A DNA stretch of 64,000 nucleotides, taken from positions 639,108 through 703,107 of the forward strand of contig CAWFYA010000002.1 of the NCBI GenBank assembly GCA_963819965.1, in the 5' to 3' direction. Below the pieces are notes generated by a model, which saw only the letters and a list, made by a program, of their open reading frames with translations, made no database searches and was not told the DNA's origin. The translations under genes were made by a program, and so were the position numbers. Shown here piece by piece: positions 27,679 through 37,180 of this stretch (position 1 is its first letter; every line of letters begins with the position of its first letter). The stretch is from an uncultured beta proteobacterium. GTDB lineage: Bacteria; Pseudomonadota; Gammaproteobacteria; Burkholderiales; Casimicrobiaceae.

Positions 27679-28737
27679 TCAGGCGCGCCTGCGCCGTTTC
27701 GGGTTGGCGGCAACCAGGCACAGTTCGGTGAAAAGCATCTGCGCGCCGATTTGCGCGGTATTCGTGGTGGCGTCGTATTGCGGCGCCACTTCGACCACGT
27801 CGCCGCCGATGATGTCCAGGCCGGCCAGTCCGCGGAAGATGGCGAGCGCTTCGCGCGGCGTCAGGCCGCCGACTTCCGGCGTGCCGGTGCCGGGTGCGAA
27901 GCCGGGGTCGATGCCGTCCACGTCGAACGTGACGTAGACAGGTCCGTTGCCGACAACTGCGCGCGCCTTGGCAACGACCGCAGCCGTACCCATGGCGGCG
28001 ACCTCCTCCGCGTGCAACACCGTCATGCCCGAGTCCCGGGAAAATTCCCACAGGAACTCGGCGCCGCCGCGGATGCCGATCTGGATTGAGCGCTCCGGAT
28101 CGAGAACGCCGGCGAGGACCGCTTGGCGAAAGGGTCCGCCGTGGTGAAACTTCGATCCCTCGAATTCGCCGGCTGTATCGCAGTGGGCGTCGATGTGAAC
28201 CATGCCCACGGGACGATCGCGTCCGAGTGCCTTCAGGATCGGAAAGGTGATTGAGTGGTCGCCACCGACCGCCAGCGGGATCACGTTGGCGTCGTGCAAG
28301 CGGTGAAAGTACGCCTCGATGTCGGCCATGCACTGGTCGAGCGAGAAGCGGCTGGCCATCGGCACGTCGCCGACGTCGGCGAACTTCAGCAGTCCGGCGG
28401 GCGCCAACTTGAGGACGTGCTCGTAGGGACCGATGCGTTCGACGTTGCGCATTGCGCGCGGCCCCAAACGCGCACCCGCGCGGTTGGTCACGCCCAGATC
28501 CATCGGCACGCCGACCAGCGCGACGTCGATGTCGCCGAACTCGTCAGGGCCACCCGCGCTCGCCGCAGCCAGCATGGGCGCGCCGAGGAACGTCGGGACA
28601 CCGGCAAACGGCCAGGCGCGCCGCTTGTTGTCGATGAAGGCCCTTGCACCGACGGCGGCGAACGCCGGATCGAAAATATTCCCGCCTTTGGCGTTCGCAT
28701 ATTTCTTGCGCAGCGCATTCAAGCGGGTCTTGTTCAT
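27679..28737 (-). CDS. Ureohydrolase (agmatinase/guanidinobutyrase family)
   Basis: GGDHSIT, HIDAHCD, FDVDGIDPGFAPGTGTPEVGG; start MNKTRL after SD AGGA. Confidence 0.9.
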   Translation of the reverse strand: MNKTRLNALRKKYANAKGGNIFDPAFAAVGARAFIDNKRRAWPFAGVPTFLGAPMLAAASAGGPDEFGDIDVALVGVPMDLGVTNRAGARLGPRAMRNVERIGPYEHVLKLAPAGLLKFADVGDVPMASRFSLDQCMADIEAYFHRLHDANVIPLAVGGDHSITFPILKALGRDRPVGMVHIDAHCDTAGEFEGSKFHHGGPFRQAVLAGVLDPERSIQIGIRGGAEFLWEFSRDSGMTVLHAEEVAAMGTAAVVAKARAVVGNGPVYVTFDVDGIDPGFAPGTGTPEVGGLTPREALAIFRGLAGLDIIGGDVVEVAPQYDATTNTAQIGAQMLFTELCLVAANPKRRRRA

Positions 28738-28819
28738 GTCCTGGCCGTGTCCCGGGGCGGGAACAGGATTGCACGGCGGCGAACGCCACGGCAAGTGGTA
28801 CAAGCAAGCAGGCGTGGCC

Positions 28820-28853
28820 AAAAAAAGAGGGGTTACACTTGCGCGTAACCCCT
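28820..28853 (-). terminator. Rho-independent terminator after tRNA-Val
   Basis: AGGGGTTAC/GTAACCCCT 9-bp stem followed by a T run on the minus strand. Confidence 0.85.
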
Positions 28854-28863
28854 TGGTTCAGTG

Positions 28864-28938
28864 TGGTGGGCATTGCTGGGTTCGAACCAGCGACCCCTCC
28901 CGTGTGAGGGGAGTGCTCTACCGCTGAGCTAAACGCCC
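28864..28938 (-). tRNA. tRNA-Val(CAC)
   Basis: GGGCGTTTAGCTCAGCGGTAGAGCACTCCCCTCACACGGGAGGGGTCGCTGGTTCGAACCCAGCAATGCCCACCA; 75 nt. Confidence 0.96.
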
Positions 28939-29032
28939 CGCGAACCCAGACAGGAAGCCGGATTTAACCATAGGGCGGAAAGCAGGGTCAAACCGACGTC
29001 GCGCCCGTGTCCAGGCCTGTCATGGACAAAAA

Positions 29033-29049
29033 CGCACCGTATTGGTGCG
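29033..29049. promoter_or_regulatory. NtrC-type enhancer palindrome
   Basis: CGCACC-GTATT-GGTGCG versus consensus TGCACC-N5-GGTGCA; about 95 bp upstream of a sigma54 -24 box. Confidence 0.7.
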
Positions 29050-29132
29050 GTTTCTTGTATTTGTCGCATTGCAGCACGTGCACGTTACAATTGACCTTGG
29101 CTAACCCATTGGCGTCCCGAGCTATTCTCGGT

Positions 29133-29149
29133 TTGGCTCGCCGCTTGCT
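29133..29149 (+). promoter_or_regulatory. sigma54 (-24/-12) promoter
   Basis: TTGGCTCGCCGCTTGCT: GG-N10-GC with TTGC at -12; 31 bp before ATG 29181. Confidence 0.75.
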
Positions 29150-29180
29150 CAGCCAACTCCCAGACCGCGAAATCGAACGC

Positions 29181-30596
29181 ATGTCCTCCCTCCCTTTTGA
29201 CGAAATGTCGGTTCCCGGTGGCGGGGTCCGGTCCCACTACCGTGCGTTCGCTGACTGGCTCGAGCGCACGGACAGCGCCCACATAGCGCAAAAAAGGGAC
29301 GAGGCGGAACGTGCCTTCCACCGCGTAGGAATCACCTTTGCGGTTTATGGCGAAGACGCGGGAACCGAGCGCCTCATTCCGTTCGATATCGTGCCGCGGA
29401 TCATTCCCGCCGACGAGTGGCGCATTCTCGAATCCGGATTGAAGCAACGCGTGCATGCGCTCAATCTGTTCCTGGCGGACGTCTATCACGACCAGAAGAT
29501 CCTCAAGGCCGGTGCCATTCCCGCCGAACGTGTGCTGGGCAACACGCAGTTCCGGCGCGAGATGGAGGGGATGGACGTCCCAGGCGGCATCTACGCGCAC
29601 ATTGCCGGCGTCGACCTCGTGCGCGCCGGCGCAGGCGAATACTATGTGCTCGAGGACAATCTGCGCGTGCCCTCCGGCGTGTCCTACATGCTCGAGAATC
29701 GCCGTATGATGATGCGGCTGTTTCCCGAACTCTTCGCCACCCGCTCGATCCGCCCGGTCCAGCACTATCCGGATATGCTGCTCGAGAACCTGCACGCGGT
29801 CGGGCCGCAGGGCGAGGAGACACCGACGGTGGCGGTGCTCACGCCCGGCGCCTACAACTCGGCCTACTACGAGCACGCGTTCCTGGCGCAACAGATGGGC
29901 GTCGAACTGGTCGAGGGCCAGGATCTCATGGTCCAGAACGACGCGGTGTACATGCGCACGACGCGCGGGCCACGTCGCGTGCATGTGATCTATCGCCGGG
30001 TCGACGATGACTTCCTCGATCCCCTGGCGTTTCGCCCCGACTCGATGCTGGGCGTGCCGGGATTGTTCGGGGCGTATCGCGCGGGCAGGGTGACGCTCGC
30101 CAACGCGATCGGCACCGGTGTCGCGGACGACAAGTCGATCTATCCGTTTGTCCCCGCCATGATCAAGTTTTACCTGGCCGAGGAGCCGATCCTCCACAAC
30201 GTGCCTACCTTCATGCTGTACAAGCCGAAGGACTGCGAATACGCACTCGCCAATCTCGACAAGCTGGTGGTGAAGGAGGTACACGGCGCGGGCGGCTACG
30301 GCATGCTCGTGGGACCGGCGGCGACCGTTGCCGAGCGCGACGCGTTCCGCCGGCGCATCGTGGCGGAACCGGACAAGTACATCGCGCAGCCGACGCTGGC
30401 ACTTTCGACGTGCCCCACCTTCGTCGAGGCGGGTCTCGCGCCGCGACACATTGACCTGCGGCCCTATGTGCTCTCCGGCAAGGACGTCGACCTGGTTCCC
30501 GGCGGCCTGACCCGGGTTGCGCTGCGGGAAGGATCGCTGGTGGTCAACTCGTCGCAGGGCGGCGGCACCAAGGACACCTGGGTCCTGGCCGACTAG
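29181..30596 (+). CDS. Circularly permuted type 2 ATP-grasp protein
   Basis: GITFAVYG, PFDIVPRII, VLEDNLRVPSGVSY, LANAIGTGVADDK, GSLVVNSSQGGGTKDTW; start MSSLPFDEM. Confidence 0.9.
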   Translation: MSSLPFDEMSVPGGGVRSHYRAFADWLERTDSAHIAQKRDEAERAFHRVGITFAVYGEDAGTERLIPFDIVPRIIPADEWRILESGLKQRVHALNLFLADVYHDQKILKAGAIPAERVLGNTQFRREMEGMDVPGGIYAHIAGVDLVRAGAGEYYVLEDNLRVPSGVSYMLENRRMMMRLFPELFATRSIRPVQHYPDMLLENLHAVGPQGEETPTVAVLTPGAYNSAYYEHAFLAQQMGVELVEGQDLMVQNDAVYMRTTRGPRRVHVIYRRVDDDFLDPLAFRPDSMLGVPGLFGAYRAGRVTLANAIGTGVADDKSIYPFVPAMIKFYLAEEPILHNVPTFMLYKPKDCEYALANLDKLVVKEVHGAGGYGMLVGPAATVAERDAFRRRIVAEPDKYIAQPTLALSTCPTFVEAGLAPRHIDLRPYVLSGKDVDLVPGGLTRVALREGSLVVNSSQGGGTKDTWVLAD

Positions 30597-30624: not shown

Positions 30625-31590
30625 ATGACTGCCATGCTTTGTCGCACCGCAAACGAGCTCTTCTGGATGGCGCGGCACATCGAGCGCGCGGAAAACACCG
30701 CGCGCCTGCTCGACGTCACGTATCGCACATCGCTGCTGCCCTACCAACTCCAGGAGCCGGGACTGGCCTGGGCGGAGCCGTGGTCGGTGCCGCTCATCGC
30801 CACCGGCGTGGCCACGCCGTACTACCAGAAATACCCCGAGCTCAATTCCGAGAACGTGCTCCGCTTCATGATCATGGACGACGACAACCGATCGTCGATC
30901 TGGAGTTGCCTGTGGGCAGCCCGCGAGTCCGCTCGCAGCGTGCGCGGCGCCATCACCTCCGAGATGTACGAGGACCTGAACGGCGCATGGATAGAAATCC
31001 GCGACCACGGCTTCGAGCGGCTGAACGACGTCGGCGTGTCGGATTTCCTGGACTGGGTGAAGATGCGCTCGCATTTGTTCCGCGGCGTGACGTTCGGCAC
31101 GATGCTGCGAGACGAGGCGTATCACTTCATCCGCCTGGGCACGCACATCGAGCGTGCCGACAATACCGCGCGCATTCTCGACACCAAGTATCACATCCTG
31201 CTGCCGTCCACGGCGGACGTCGGCGGCGCGGTGGACTATTACCAGTGGGCGTCGCTGCTGCAGTCGCTGTCCGGGTTCGAGTCCTACCGCAAGATCTACA
31301 GCGACGTCATCTCGCCGCGGCGGGTGGCCGAACTTCTGGTCCTGCGCGACGACATGCCGCGCTCGCTGCACAGCTGCCTCAATTTCATCGACGACACGCT
31401 GGAACTGCTGTGCGACGACAATAGCCGCGAACTCAGGCGGCAGGCCGGGGAGCTGCACGCGCGGCTGCACTACGGCAAGACGGAGGAAATCATCCGCTTC
31501 GGCCTGCACGAATACCTGATGGACTTCCTGTCGCGCGTGTCCGCTCTGGGTGGCGAGATCAGCCGCCGCTTCCTGGTGCCCACCTACTAA
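30625..31590 (+). CDS. Alpha-E domain protein
   Basis: LFWMARHIERAENTARLL and a second GTHIERADNTARILD (ER motifs), PRSL. Confidence 0.9.
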   Translation: MTAMLCRTANELFWMARHIERAENTARLLDVTYRTSLLPYQLQEPGLAWAEPWSVPLIATGVATPYYQKYPELNSENVLRFMIMDDDNRSSIWSCLWAARESARSVRGAITSEMYEDLNGAWIEIRDHGFERLNDVGVSDFLDWVKMRSHLFRGVTFGTMLRDEAYHFIRLGTHIERADNTARILDTKYHILLPSTADVGGAVDYYQWASLLQSLSGFESYRKIYSDVISPRRVAELLVLRDDMPRSLHSCLNFIDDTLELLCDDNSRELRRQAGELHARLHYGKTEEIIRFGLHEYLMDFLSRVSALGGEISRRFLVPTY

Positions 31591-31696
31591 ACAACCCGAC
31601 CGCTGCGGTAACGCCGCCCGCGCTGGCTGCGGGACGGCAAATCACCAGCCGCGACATCCTTCCTTTACCCATGCTGCCTTTCGCCGTGCGCACTCC

Positions 31697-32428
31697 ATGA
31701 CCTACTGCGTTGCCATGTCCCTCGATGCGGGGATGATTTTCGCCTCGGACTCCCGCACTAATGCCGGCGTCGACCAGATCGCCCGCTTTTCCAAGATGAA
31801 GGTGTTCGCCAAGGACGGCGATCGCGTCATCGTCACGTTGTCTTCCGGCAATCTCGCGGTCACGCAGAGCGCGCTCAACAATCTCGACCATCACACCCGC
31901 AAGGATGAGAACGAACTCAGCATCTGGAACGCCCAGTCGATGTTCGACGTGGCCCGCCTGGTCGGCGACTCGCTGCGCGAAATCAAGGCGCGCGACGGAC
32001 CCTACCTGGCGCAGAACAACATCGATGCGTCGGGCAATTTCCTGATCGGCGGGCAGATCAAGGGTGAGCCCCATCGCCTGTTCAACGTCTATGGCGAGGG
32101 CAATTTCATCGAGGCGTCGCCGGATACCTGCTATTTCCAGATCGGCGAGTCGAAATACGGCAAGCCGGTTATCGATCGCGTGATCAAGCGCAATTCCAGC
32201 CTGCTCGACGCCACCAAGTGCACGGTCGTGTCGTTCGACTCCACGATGCGCTCGAACATATCGGTGGGCCTGCCCATCGACCTGGTGGTATACGAGGCAG
32301 ACAGCCTGACGATCAAGATCCAGAAGCGCATTGACGAGAGCGACCCCTACTTCCAGATGATGCATCGCGAGTGGGGCGAAGGCCTGCGCCGCGTGTTCGC
32401 GCAACTGCCCGACCCGGACTGGACCTGA
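31697..32428 (+). CDS. Proteasome-type Ntn protease (Anbu)
   Basis: MTYCV (Thr1 nucleophile after Met removal), SDSRTNAGVDQI, QIGESKYGKPVIDR, STMRSNISVGLP. Confidence 0.9.
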   Translation: MTYCVAMSLDAGMIFASDSRTNAGVDQIARFSKMKVFAKDGDRVIVTLSSGNLAVTQSALNNLDHHTRKDENELSIWNAQSMFDVARLVGDSLREIKARDGPYLAQNNIDASGNFLIGGQIKGEPHRLFNVYGEGNFIEASPDTCYFQIGESKYGKPVIDRVIKRNSSLLDATKCTVVSFDSTMRSNISVGLPIDLVVYEADSLTIKIQKRIDESDPYFQMMHREWGEGLRRVFAQLPDPDWT

Positions 32429-32451: not shown

Positions 32452-35400
32452 ATGGCCATTCGCGTAGCACTGTCTCACCGCACGACCTACCGCTTCGATC
32501 GCCACGTCGCGATCGGGCCACATGAGATCCGGCTGCGCCCGGCGCCGCATTGCCGCACGCCGATTCTGAGCTATTCCCTCAACGTCCTGCCGGAACCGCA
32601 TTTCCTCAACTGGCAGCAGGATCCCTACGGCAACTGGGTCGCGCGTTTGGTATTTCCTGAGCGCGCCGGGCTGATGGAGATCGAGGTCGACCTGGTGGCG
32701 GACCTCACCGTCATCAACCCTTTCGATTTCTTCGTCGAGCCGTACGCTGAGGAGTATCCGTTCGCCTACGCGCCGGCGCTGGCCAAGGAACTGATCCCCT
32801 TTCTCGAGACGGCGCCGCTCGGACCGCGCCTGGCGGCGTGGCTGGAGGAATTCCGCAAGACCATCCTTCCGGGCGAAAGTCCCGTGCTGATGCTGGTGCG
32901 GCTCAACCAGCTGCTGCAGGGCCAGATCAAGTATCTCGTGCGCATGCAGCCTGGCGTGCAGACGCCCGAGGAAACGCTGGGCAATGCCAGCGGCTCCTGC
33001 CGCGACTCCGGCTGGCTTCTGGTCCAGATCATGCGGCACCTGGGACTCGCGGCACGCTTCGCGTCCGGCTACCTGGTGCAGTTGGTCGCCGACATCAAGG
33101 CGCTCGACGGGCCTTCGGGCACGACCAAGGATTTCACCGATCTGCACGCGTGGGCCGAGGTCTTCATCCCGGGGGCGGGCTGGATTGGCTTCGACCCGAC
33201 CTCGGGGCTGCTGGCGGGCGAGGGACATATTCCGCTTGCGTGCACGGCCGATCCAGGGAACGCGGCACCGGTGATCGGCTACACCGATGTGGCCGACGTC
33301 GAGTTCACGGTCACGATGAGCGTCACGCGTATCCACGAGGACCCGCGCGTCACGCTGCCCTACACCGACAAGCAATGGCAGGCCATCGACCGGCTGGGCG
33401 AGCAGGTCGACGGCGACCTCGTGACCGATGACGTGCGCCTGACGCAAGGCGGCGAACCGACTTTCGTGTCCATCGATGACATGGAAGGCGCCGAATGGAA
33501 CTACACCGCGCTGTCGCCGAAGAAGCGGCAACTGGGCGAAATACTGATCAAGCGCCTGAAGGGCAAGTTTGCGCCGGAAGGCTTCCTGCACTATGGACAG
33601 GGGAAGTGGTATCCGGGCGAGCCGCTGCCACGCTGGGCGCTTGGCGTGTTCTGGCGCACCGACGGGGTACCGCTTTGGCGCGGCGACACGCATGTCGCGG
33701 ATACCTCCGGAAAGGGGACTACGACGACGGCCGCGGCGCAGACCTTTGGTCAGCAGCTCGCGGCAAGGTTGGGATTGCCCGCGTCGCTACTCATCACGGC
33801 CCATGAAGATGTGCCCAAGCTTTTGCAGGAGGAGGCTGCACTACCGATTAACGCCGATCCGCTGGCCGCCGACCTGACCAAGCCCGACGAGCGTGCGCGC
33901 CTGGCACGGTTACTCGCTGCCGGACTCTCGTCACCGGCGGGATTCGTGCTCCCGCTCAAGGGCAGGCTCGACGACGATGCGGCAATCGCCTGGGAATCGA
34001 GCCCCTGGCCGCTGAAACGGCAGCATCTGTACGCGGTGGCGGGGGATTCGCCATTGGGCCTGCGCCTGCCACTCAGTTCCCTGCCGCAATTGTTGCCTGA
34101 CGAAACCGAACACGATTTTCCCGTCGATCCCTTCGCGCCGCGCAAACCCTTGGCGGGCAACACGTCGCGGGCCGCGAAGGATTCCAAGGTGCGCGGCAGC
34201 GAGCCCCGCGAAGTCATCAAGACCGCACTGACGTTGCAGGTGCGCGATGGCCACCTCTATGTATTCATGCCGCCGCTCGAGTTGCTCGAAGCCTACGTTG
34301 CGCTGCTGGCGGCAATCGAGGACGTCGCGCGCGAATTGGACACGCCGGTGGCCATCGAAGGCTACACGCCGCCGCGCGATCCCCGCGTGAAAGTGCTGAT
34401 GGTGACACCCGACCCGGGCGTGATCGAGGTCAACATCCACCCGGCCTCGTCGTGGCGCGACCTGTTGGCCACGACCGAGACACTGTATGAGGAGGCGCGA
34501 CAAGCGAGACTTGGCACCGAGAAGTTCATGCTCGACGGCCGGCACACGGGTACGGGCGGCGGCAATCATGTCACGCTGGGCGGCGCCACGCCGGCGGACA
34601 GTCCGCTGTTGCGTCGGCCCGATCTTTTACAAAGCCTCATCACGTATTGGCAGAATCATCCGGCGCTGTCCTACCTGTTTTCCGGCATGTTCATCGGCCC
34701 GACCAGCCAGGCGCCGCGCGTCGATGAGGCGCGCGACGACCGCTTGTACGAGCTGGCTATCGCTTTCCAGCAATTGCGGCGAAAGCATGCGGCGGGGAGC
34801 GAATCCCCGCAGCCATGGCTGGTCGACCGCCTGCTGCGGCACATGCTGACAGACCTCACCGGCAATACGCATCGCTCGGAATTCTCGATCGACAAGCTGT
34901 ACTCACCCGACAGTTCCACGGGCCGCCTGGGCATCCTCGAGTTCCGCGCGTTCGAAATGCCGCCGCATGCACGCATGAGCGCGGTGCAGGTGCTGCTCCT
35001 GCGCGCGCTCGTGGCGCGATTCTGGCGCGATCCGTACCGTGGCGAGCTCATCCCCTGGGGCACCGCATTGCACGATCGCTGGCTGCTGCCGCATTTCGTT
35101 GCCGCCGACATCCGCGACGTGGCGGACGACCTGAATCGCGCGGGCTATGCTTTCGATCCGGCCTGGTTCGAGCCATTCGTGGAATTTCGCTTCCCGCGCT
35201 TCGGCACAGCCACCTACGCGGGTGTGATGCTGGAGTTGCGGCAGGCGATCGAACCCTGGCACGTGCTGGGCGAGGAGGTGGCGCTCGGCGCGACCGCGCG
35301 TTATGTCGATTCGTCGATCGAGCGCCTCCAGTTCAAGGCGGTCGGGATGACCGGTGGCCGGCACGTTGTCACCTGCAACGGCCGCGCGCTGCCGCTGACT

Positions 35401-35739
35401 CCCACAGGCGTCCCCGGCGAGTTCGTGGCGGGCGTTCGCTTCCGCGCGTGGAACCCGCCGTCGGCGCTGCACCCGACCATCGGCGTACAGGCGCCACTGA
35501 CCTTCGACTTGATCGACACGTGGTCGCAGCGCGCTCTGGGCGGCTGCACGTACCACGTCGTGCATCCGGGCGGCCGCAACTACGACACGTTTCCGGTCAA
35601 TGCCAACGAAGCCGAGGCGCGACGCGTCGCGCGTTTCTGGGCGCACGGGCACACCCCCGGCCCGATGGTCGTGCATCCGGAACAAACCAATCCGGCCACG
35701 CCGGCCACGCTCGATTTGCGTTGGCAGCCGGCCCGATAA
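32452..35739 (+). CDS. Transglutaminase-domain protein fused to DUF2126 putative amidoligase
   Basis: N-terminal bacterial transglutaminase domain, GSCRDSGW and DLHAWAEV (Cys/His), then [36 protein letters not shown]. Confidence 0.88.
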
Positions 35740-35782
35740 CGTCCTAACGGTAAGATGCGTCCTTTTGCCGAGGACGACTCGA

Positions 35783-37180
35783 GTGAGTGAAGTCAGGAGC
35801 CGGTTTGCCCCCAGCCCGACGGGCTATCTTCACTTGGGCAGCGCGCGCACCGCGCTATTCGCGTGGGCCTATGCGCGGCATTTCGGCGGCAAGTTCATCC
35901 TGCGCGTCGAGGACACGGACGTCGAGCGCTCCACGCCGGCCGCCGTCAAGGCAATCTTCGATGCGATGGCCTGGCTCGGGCTCGACTACGATGAAGGCCC
36001 GTTTTTCCAGATGCAGCGCATGGACCGGTATCGCGAGGCGCTGGCGCAAATGCTCGCCGCCGGACAGGTTTATCGTTGCTACATGAGCCCCAAGGAGCTC
36101 GATGCGTTGCGCGCCGAGCAAACTGCGCGGGGAGAAAAGCCGCGCTACGACGGACGCTGGCGCCCCGAGAACAGCGTCGGCAAAACGCCACCACCGGACG
36201 CGAAACCGGTGCTGCGCTTTCGCAATCCGGACACCGGCGCGGTGGCATGGGACGACGGGGTAAAGGGCCGCATCGAAATCGCCAATGCGGAATTGGACGA
36301 CCTGGTGATCGCTCGCCCGGACGGCACGCCCACCTACAACTTTTGTGTCGTGGTCGACGACATCGACATGCGCATCACCAACGTGATCCGCGGCGACGAC
36401 CACGTCAACAACACGCCGCGGCAGATCAACATTTTCCGCGCGCTCGGTGCGCAGCCGCCTGCCTATGCGCATGTTCCCACGGTACTGGGTGAGGACGGCG
36501 CCAAGCTGTCCAAGCGCCATGGCGCGATGGGCGTAATGGAATACGAGGCGCAAGGTTTTCTGCCCGAAGCATTGATCAATTTCCTCGCCCGCATCGGTTG
36601 GGGGCACGGCGACGAGGAAATATTCACGCGCGAGCAGTTGGTGCAGTGGTTCGACCTCCCGGGGATCAGCCCGGCGCCGTCGCGCTTCAACGCCGACAAG
36701 CTGAAATGGGTGAACCAGGAGCACATGAGACGCCTGCCGGACGCAGAGCTTGGGCGGCGCCTCGTCCCGTTCCTCGTGCGCGCGGGACTCGATCCTGCCG
36801 CCGGACCCGATGCGGGCGCCGTGGCCGCGCTGCTGCGCGACCGTGCCGACACGCTGGTGGCGATGGCCGATGCGGCGCATTACCTGTATGCCACGCCCAC
36901 GGTCGCCGCCGAGAAATTGGCGGCGCAGGTCAATGACGCCATCCGTCCCGCTCTGGTCGAGCTGCACGCCGAATTCGCCAGCCTGAACTGGACGCGGGAG
37001 GCGCTGATGGCAGCACTCAAGGCCGCCGCCGCGCGTCATGGCTTGAAGCCGCCGCCGATCATGATGGCGGTGCGCATGCTGGTGGCGGGGACCACCTCCA
37101 CGCCGGCCATCGACGCCGTGCTGGCCCTGCTGGGACGCGATACGACGTGCGCGCGCATGGCGACTGGATTGGGAATCTGA
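35783..37180 (+). CDS. gltX: Glutamate--tRNA ligase
   Basis: [13 protein letters not shown] (HIGH), KLSKR (KMSKS); GTG start 35783. Confidence 0.95.

Follow-up and report, generated by a model that had tools for sequence, protein, structure and literature searches.

What controls the operon of Anbu, the proteasome-like peptidase encoded together with an ATP-grasp protein, an alpha-E domain protein and a transglutaminase? Regulation is among the few clues to the biochemical role of this system. The promoter considered here lies within a stretch of 64,000 nucleotides, 'the window' in what follows (C2:639108–703107), in the 4.04-Mb, 64.5% G+C genome of an uncultured betaproteobacterial lineage known from metagenome-assembled genomes of soil and wastewater. 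Searches of sequencing runs met the host sequence only in metagenome DNA of soil and sediment, and in no RNA run. An earlier interpretation made from the letters of the DNA, the sequence-only reading, proposed a complete NtrC enhancer and sigma-54 promoter ahead of the operon, and hence a response to nitrogen starvation. Our own analysis leads to much the same place: the operon is very probably preceded by a sigma-54 promoter that NtrC activates.

The locus and its operon

The first gene, CP_ATPgrasp_2 (29181–30596, plus strand), is separated by a divergent intergenic region of 242 bp from a gene for tRNA-Val (anticodon CAC; 28864–28938, minus strand), an arrangement kept in all 14 of the loci from the genus that could be aligned. 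The tRNA gene ends in an intrinsic terminator of its own, which consists of a stem of 11 bp and, after it, a run of T (28828–28853, minus strand). The ATP-grasp start at 29181 can be regarded as fixed, because the N-terminus is conserved: MSSLP[FY]DEM in the closest orthologues, and [YF]DEM more widely. On the same strand follow the alpha-E domain protein (30625–31590), Anbu itself, an Ntn peptidase beginning MTYCV (31697–32428; E = 5e-94 to PDB 5LOY), and a protein of 1095 aa in which Bact_transglu_N and Transglut_core domains are fused to DUF2126 (32452–35739). The fusion gene begins 23 bp past the Anbu stop and is probably the last of the operon. All four of the domains that mark Anbu operons—CP ATP-grasp, alpha-E, transglutaminase and Anbu—are thus present and co-oriented, with the transglutaminase fused to DUF2126. 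The sequence-only reading spoke of an ATP-grasp/Anbu operon, and Anbu is indeed there, but the operon does not have the canonical four-gene form; it lacks the small transglutaminase gene, and has the DUF2126 fusion after Anbu instead. No plus-strand terminator-like site was found between the fusion gene and gltX (35650–35950), and transcription may therefore run on from the operon into gltX, the gene for glutamyl-tRNA synthetase, and from there into pyrG.

Two features of the surroundings deserve mention in their own right. Directly downstream of tRNA-Val, on the minus strand, is a gene of the arginase family (27679–28821; arginase, agmatinase or formiminoglutamase type), another nitrogen-metabolism gene adjoining the operon, whose true start probably lies well within the listed open reading frame. 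And in the 106-bp gap between the alpha-E and Anbu genes (31591–31696), several relatives share a conserved −10-like hexamer, TAGAAT, some 40–60 bp before the Anbu ATG; in the host genome this element is degenerate (GCAAAT). The TAGAAT of the relatives is consistent with the P_PP_2685 promoter of Pseudomonas putida, the region before Anbu, which is constitutive (PMC8050072).

A predicted sigma-54 promoter and its upstream dyad

The sequence TTGGC-N7-TTGCT at 29133–29149, which the sequence-only reading had picked out, is there as described, and contains TGGC-N7-TTGC in the canonical 12-bp G-to-G register. The −24/−12 element proper, TGGCTCgccgcTTGCT, occupies 29134–29149 on the plus strand, with its GG at 29135–36 and its GC at 29147–48, exactly one helical turn apart. 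Against the consensus TGGCAC-N5-TTGCW it scores 14 of 16 positions, the N5 set aside, and 19 of 20 when the positions are weighted. A blemish is that the −24 part reads TGGCTC rather than TGGCAC, a point that counts against assigning it to sigma-54. The box (TGGC-N7-TTGC, 29134–48) begins 47 bp ahead of the ATP-grasp ATG, and from the position of the −12 doublet transcription is predicted to start at 29159 (±2, plus strand), giving a leader of approximately 22 nt.

Upstream lies CGCACC-N5-GGTGCG (29033–29049), a perfect dyad that agrees with the NtrC activator site TGCACC-N5-GGTGCA at 10 of 12 positions; the palindrome reported earlier was borne out by direct inspection. Its centre, 29041, precedes the −24 GG by 94 bp and lies at approximately −118 from the predicted start, inside the range of about 80–150 bp expected for such sites upstream of sigma-54 starts. 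Classical enhancers have two or more NtrC sites, whereas here only one is strong, and this must be set against an NtrC reading. Forty bp downstream of it, centred at about −78, is a weak cluster of half-sites (aGCACGTGCACg, 29073–29089; 8/12) that is possibly a second NtrC site of low affinity.

Between the strong dyad and the promoter, the spacer (29050–29133) is 51% A+T, compared with 35.5% for the genome. It contains the block CTAAC-N4-TTG (29102–29111; CAA-N4-TTA on the minus strand), centred at about −51 to −52, which had been proposed as a partial IHF-like site. The block exists, and it is conserved in most loci of the genus, but as an IHF site it is poor: it matches the consensus WATCAANNNNTTR at no more than 6 of 9 positions, only the CAA-N4-TTA core being present, and no site of at least 7/9 occurs on either strand of 29050–29133. 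Given so modest a match, the name 'IHF-like' should be understood to mean no more than a conserved element that probably has to do with bending. The genome has four genes of the HU/IHF family (Bac_DNA_binding).

How unusual are these motifs? One at a time, not very. The window contains four matches to the sigma-54 pattern where 3.76 are expected, which is unremarkable, and one GCACC-N5-GGTGC dyad where 0.22 are expected. Singly the motifs are only mildly unusual in the window, and so the case rests on their combination, their context and their conservation. In the genome as a whole GCACC-N5-GGTGC occurs in exact form at only 10 places, and exact TGGC-N7-TTGC boxes number 342 when both strands are counted; an exact dyad and an exact box are found 40–300 bp apart at one place only, the Anbu operon. 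By our own arithmetic, about 0.01 gene-proximal pairs of this kind would be expected per genome. The pairing is significant.

Nitrogen-regulatory machinery and candidate promoters in the host genome

The genome encodes the proteins that such a promoter would need. A gene for RpoN is present (Sigma54_DBD, 218 bits, C1:126734–127204, in a frame of 520 aa), together with six genuine enhancer-binding proteins, all of them encoded elsewhere than in or near the window. One of the six is NtrC: it scores 699.7 bits against the equivalog model TIGR01818, for which the cut-off is 558.6, and its gene is downstream of glnA. The DNA-binding domain of Salmonella NtrC in PDB 1NTC can be aligned with the C-terminal helix-turn-helix of the host NtrC, GWGRNTLTRKIQELG, and the recognition helix proves to be conserved. 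We take 1NTC to be an alanine-substituted mutant whose wild-type helix, RNTLTRK, is identical to that of the host protein.

The same architecture recurs at promoters where nitrogen control would be looked for. Ahead of the porin-glnK-amtB operon, TGGCAC-N5-ATGCT is preceded by GGCACC-N5-GGTGCA, whose centre is 83 bp away across a spacer rich in A+T. Ahead of glnA stands TGGCAT-N5-TCGCT, with NtrC-like sites of 9/12 centred approximately 92 and 144 bp upstream and an additional GCACC half-site between the two. Under looser rules, 2265 sigma-54 candidates precede open reading frames in this genome, and 17 of these have an NtrC site of at least 10/12 at about 55–225 bp; just two of the 17 are both strong and truly intergenic, the Anbu-operon locus and glnK.

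Three other places in the genome call for comment. A sigma-54-like box at C2:760593, with a dyad 95 bp upstream, is spurious, since it lies within coding sequence. The only other CGCACC-N5-GGTGCG dyad of the genome, in C4:1537302–1537322, looks intergenic and has TGGC-N7-TCGC about 60 bp downstream. As a second NtrC-regulated promoter this twin (C4:1537305) was set aside, there being no clear gene downstream; an orphan NtrC/sigma-54 unit is one conceivable reading of it, the promoter of a small RNA another. Finally, outside the window at C4:2260784–2261512, there is a second, solo Anbu paralogue (beginning MTYCIGVMLDQGMILASDSRTNAG), which follows genes that resemble, by eye and from their N-terminal sequences, those for Fe-SOD and OsmC. 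The 530 bp upstream of this paralogue yielded no sigma-54 or NtrC motifs, from which it follows that the nitrogen-type promoter is a property of the ligase operon and not of Anbu itself.

Conservation across relatives

Orthologous loci from 22 relatives were oriented and compared, and 14 regions from the same genus, each extending from tRNA to ATG, were aligned. What stands out in the alignment is a series of conserved islands—the tRNA leader and promoter blocks, TGTCCA/GTCC-W-GGACA, GCACC-N5-GGTGC, CTAAC-N4-TTG and TGGC-N7-TTGC(T)—separated by spacers that have diverged. The sigma-54 box (TGGC-N7-TTGC, with at most one mismatch) is present in all 14 loci, 40–50 bp before the ATG in all but one, where the distance is 72 bp. 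An NtrC-type site of at least 10/12 is present in 12 of the 14, and a weaker one, 9/12, in the other two. In several relatives (L010, L011 and L019) NtrC-type sites come in twos, spaced by approximately 22 bp.

A wider sample of 80 named loci was drawn from the Beta- and Gammaproteobacteria, in which a strong sigma-54 box was sought between −130 and −20 and the chance level was set by shuffles that preserve dinucleotides. Such a box is present in 43 of 79 upstream regions, as against 2.3 in the shuffles (maximum 5), and is accompanied by an NtrC site of at least 10/12 in 12 of the 79, where 0.1 would be expected. At least one NtrC-type site occurs in 42 of 101 regions, as against 2.5 by chance (maximum 5). 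The sequence-only reading had proposed a scan of orthologous upstream regions for the motifs, and the outcome is in its favour: both are kept in the genus, and both are enriched in the approximately 100 loci. On the other side, our scoring gives no strong box for some 40% of the orthologous loci, and this tells against the sigma-54/NtrC reading. The box is equally common whether or not Anbu is found inside the fetched flank, and control of this kind therefore belongs to the ATP-grasp/alpha-E core. A search of 400 class-level genomes, in which the query was Anbu of P. aeruginosa as it stands in the 5LOX alignment, gave nothing above 59% identity and hence no Pseudomonas locus.

The aligned sites carry a further signature. 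At spacer positions 7 and 11, which played no part in their selection, the 44 NtrC sites favour A and T. The extended consensus for NtrC of enteric bacteria likewise favours A and T at these two positions.

The TGTCCA element and the predicted tRNA-Val promoter

Immediately upstream of the NtrC-type dyad, ending 5 bp before it, is the second palindrome noticed earlier, TGTCCA-N9-TGGACA (29008–29028), which direct reading also upheld. It is matched once in the window where 0.07 matches are expected. What relatives conserve of it is a core, (T)GTC(C/A)-W-GGACA (29018–28), and, 10 bp upstream of this core, TGTCCA as a direct repeat; the conserved whole can be written TGTCCA-N4-TGTC(A/C)-W-GGACA. 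The element is centred at about −141 from the predicted start of the operon, and is present in approximately 10 of the 14 genus loci. The 11-mer TGTCC-N-GGACA is rare, with five exact copies genome-wide, two of the others being intergenic. In five relatives its frequency does not exceed that of the reversed control, and the idea that it marks a regulon was rejected, there being no enrichment in these genomes and too few other intergenic copies in the host to name a binder. One of the two other intergenic copies of the core, TGTCCAGGACA, occurs at C1:708359–708369, in the promoter region of a gene of the Rrf2/IscR-like kind and approximately 70 bp before it; just upstream of it is TAGTTGACTAAAATGTTCGGGTAT, which closely resembles what we take to be the type-1 site for IscR in E. 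coli.

The tRNA-Val gene on the other side of the element has a predicted promoter at 28962–28991 on the minus strand: TTGACC (28991–86), an 18-nt spacer, and an extended −10, TGgTTAAAT (28970–62). A strict sigma-70 rule misses it because the −10 hexamer has no A at position 2. Both hexamer blocks are near-invariant within the genus, and it is from the invariant minus-strand TTGACC-N18-(TGg)TTAAAT that the start of the tRNA transcript is predicted. From there to the mature 5′ end are 17 nt, CGCGAACCCAGACAGGA on the plus strand (28939–28955), that are invariant in 14 of 14 genus loci. This leader is conserved more strongly than parts of tRNA-Val itself.

Proposed mechanism and rival explanations

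If we read the region correctly, RpoN holoenzyme would bind TGGCTC-N5-TTGCT (29134–49) and drive the operon from a start near 29159, while phosphorylated NtrC, bound to CGCACC-N5-GGTGCG at about −118, would activate it from a distance, perhaps with the weaker half-site cluster at about −78 aiding oligomerization. The A+T-rich spacer and the CTAAC-N4-TTG block at about −51 probably allow a bend, whether intrinsic or due to IHF or HU, that would bring the activator to the closed complex. Nitrogen limitation, acting through the PII/NtrB/NtrC cascade, would then switch on the ATP-grasp/alpha-E/Anbu/transglutaminase-DUF2126 operon along with glnK-amtB and glnA. The architecture that the sequence-only reading had proposed finds support in the geometry of the motifs, in the presence of rpoN and ntrC, in the parallels at glnK and glnA, in footprinting across the aligned loci and in enrichment among relatives.

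Several other explanations can be imagined. The promoter might be a sigma-54 promoter that answers to a different enhancer-binding protein and a signal other than nitrogen; the NtrC-like paralogue encoded at C4:1738972–1740378 is an example. The genome does offer six such proteins, one of which, with 462 bits, falls short of the cut-off of the NtrC model, and the adjacent TGTCCA element could be the paralogue's site. But the dyad has the classical sequence of an NtrC site, and agrees with those of the host glnK and glnA promoters; the C-terminal helix of the paralogue, LLGISRSTLRSKL, differs from the GWGRNTLTRK of NtrC; no gene for an enhancer-binding protein adjoins the operon; and published data link the orthologous operon to NtrC and to nitrogen (PMC7801951, PMC5491218). 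We judge this alternative improbable. Very improbable, to our minds, is that CGCACC-N5-GGTGCG acts as RNA, as the hairpin of a bidirectional intrinsic terminator, rather than as a site for a protein. A consensus scan does flag the dyad on both strands, with a 6–7 bp stem and T-rich tails. Yet no gene ends there on either strand, tRNA-Val having a terminator of its own (28853–28828), and the 44 orthologous sites display 60 one-sided, pair-breaking changes as against four compensatory ones, and a T-rich tail in just two cases; for these reasons we regard the dyad as a protein-binding site. A structured RNA of another kind was rejected, too, since Rfam reports only the tRNA above gathering score. 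It is scarcely credible, either, that the motifs have come together by accident and that the operon is read from a sigma-70 promoter that went unrecognized. The sigma-54 pattern by itself does occur at chance rate in the window, but a consensus scan of 28800–29250 uncovered no sigma-70-like promoter for the operon, and conservation and enrichment are far above those in shuffled controls.

The TGTCCA element is a separate matter. It might serve the divergent tRNA-Val promoter, as the site of an activator or repressor, and be unrelated to the Anbu operon. Its centre, at about −63 relative to the predicted start of tRNA-Val, is where an activator would classically bind, and the synteny of tRNA and operon is kept throughout the genus. 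However, three loci (L011, L012 and L014) retain tRNA-Val and its promoter blocks but not the element, and have a second NtrC-like site in its place; wherever the element does occur, 5 bp invariably separate it from the NtrC site; and the remaining intergenic TGTCC-N-GGACA sites of the genome all lie away from tRNA genes. We consider a role confined to tRNA-Val conceivable, then, though on the unlikely side. That the element is the operator of a second regulator, which might use a second signal to gate the activation of the Anbu operon by NtrC, or might co-ordinate the tRNA-Val promoter with the operon, is conceivable but doubtful. Conserved and adjoining the enhancer, the element is the only mildly novel item of the locus.

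Comparison with known systems

The textbook models for promoters of this sort are glnAp2 and glnHp2 of enteric bacteria, which combine a GG/GC −24/−12 element with TGCACC-N5-GGTGCA sites approximately 100–140 bp upstream and a spacer that is bendable or assisted by IHF. This plan is common to the Anbu-operon, glnK and glnA promoters of the host. The Anbu-operon promoter departs from it in having one strong and one weak NtrC site rather than two strong ones, in the outer bases of its dyad, which are C/G and not T/A, in its poor IHF match, and in the extra conserved TGTCCA element that abuts the enhancer.

Closer relatives of the operon have been studied experimentally. For P. putida, Anbu is reported to be upregulated under nitrogen limitation (Hervas 2008, as cited in PMC5666114 and PMC6376114). 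The genes PP_2686–2688 are induced 11–15-fold and have been assigned to NtrB/NtrC (PMC7801951), and in a reporter the 200–300 bp upstream of the ATP-grasp gene PP_2688 (P_PP_2688) gave 3.7-fold induction on nitrogen limitation (PMC8050072). Strict dependence on sigma-54 is not clear-cut even there, since by RNA-seq PP_2686–88 kept their induction in a strain mutant for rpoN (PMC7801951, Table 2); urtA, unexpectedly, behaved in the same way (PMC7801951). In P. putida KT2440, then, the response of PP_2688–PP_2685 to nitrogen limitation has been measured, whereas the host operon is known in silico only, and differs from that of KT2440 in lacking the small transglutaminase gene and in having the transglutaminase-DUF2126 fusion after Anbu. 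A related cluster is that of Burkholderia cenocepacia H111, where I35_5080–83, a transglutaminase/DUF2126 cluster with a 'large transglutaminase-domain protein', is down 6–9-fold in an ntrC mutant and is sigma-54-dependent, too, by RNA-seq of mutants (PMC5491218). That paper makes no mention of Anbu, and gives no binding sites for the cluster (PMC5491218).

The proposal that the operon responds to nitrogen starvation agrees with these experiments in P. putida (PMC5666114, PMC6376114, PMC7801951, PMC8050072) and B. cenocepacia (PMC5491218); for the same reason, it is very probably correct but not new. What the comparison of loci adds is breadth. The wiring of the ATP-grasp/alpha-E core operon to nitrogen starvation would seem to be old and widely conserved across Beta- and Gammaproteobacteria, and to reach the variant of the operon that carries a transglutaminase-DUF2126 fusion. 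It embodies no new principle, but its conservation strengthens the case for studying the Anbu system under nitrogen starvation. Pseudomonas and Burkholderia had already provided Anbu operons under nitrogen control, and the host locus is an in-silico example of this known regulatory arrangement.
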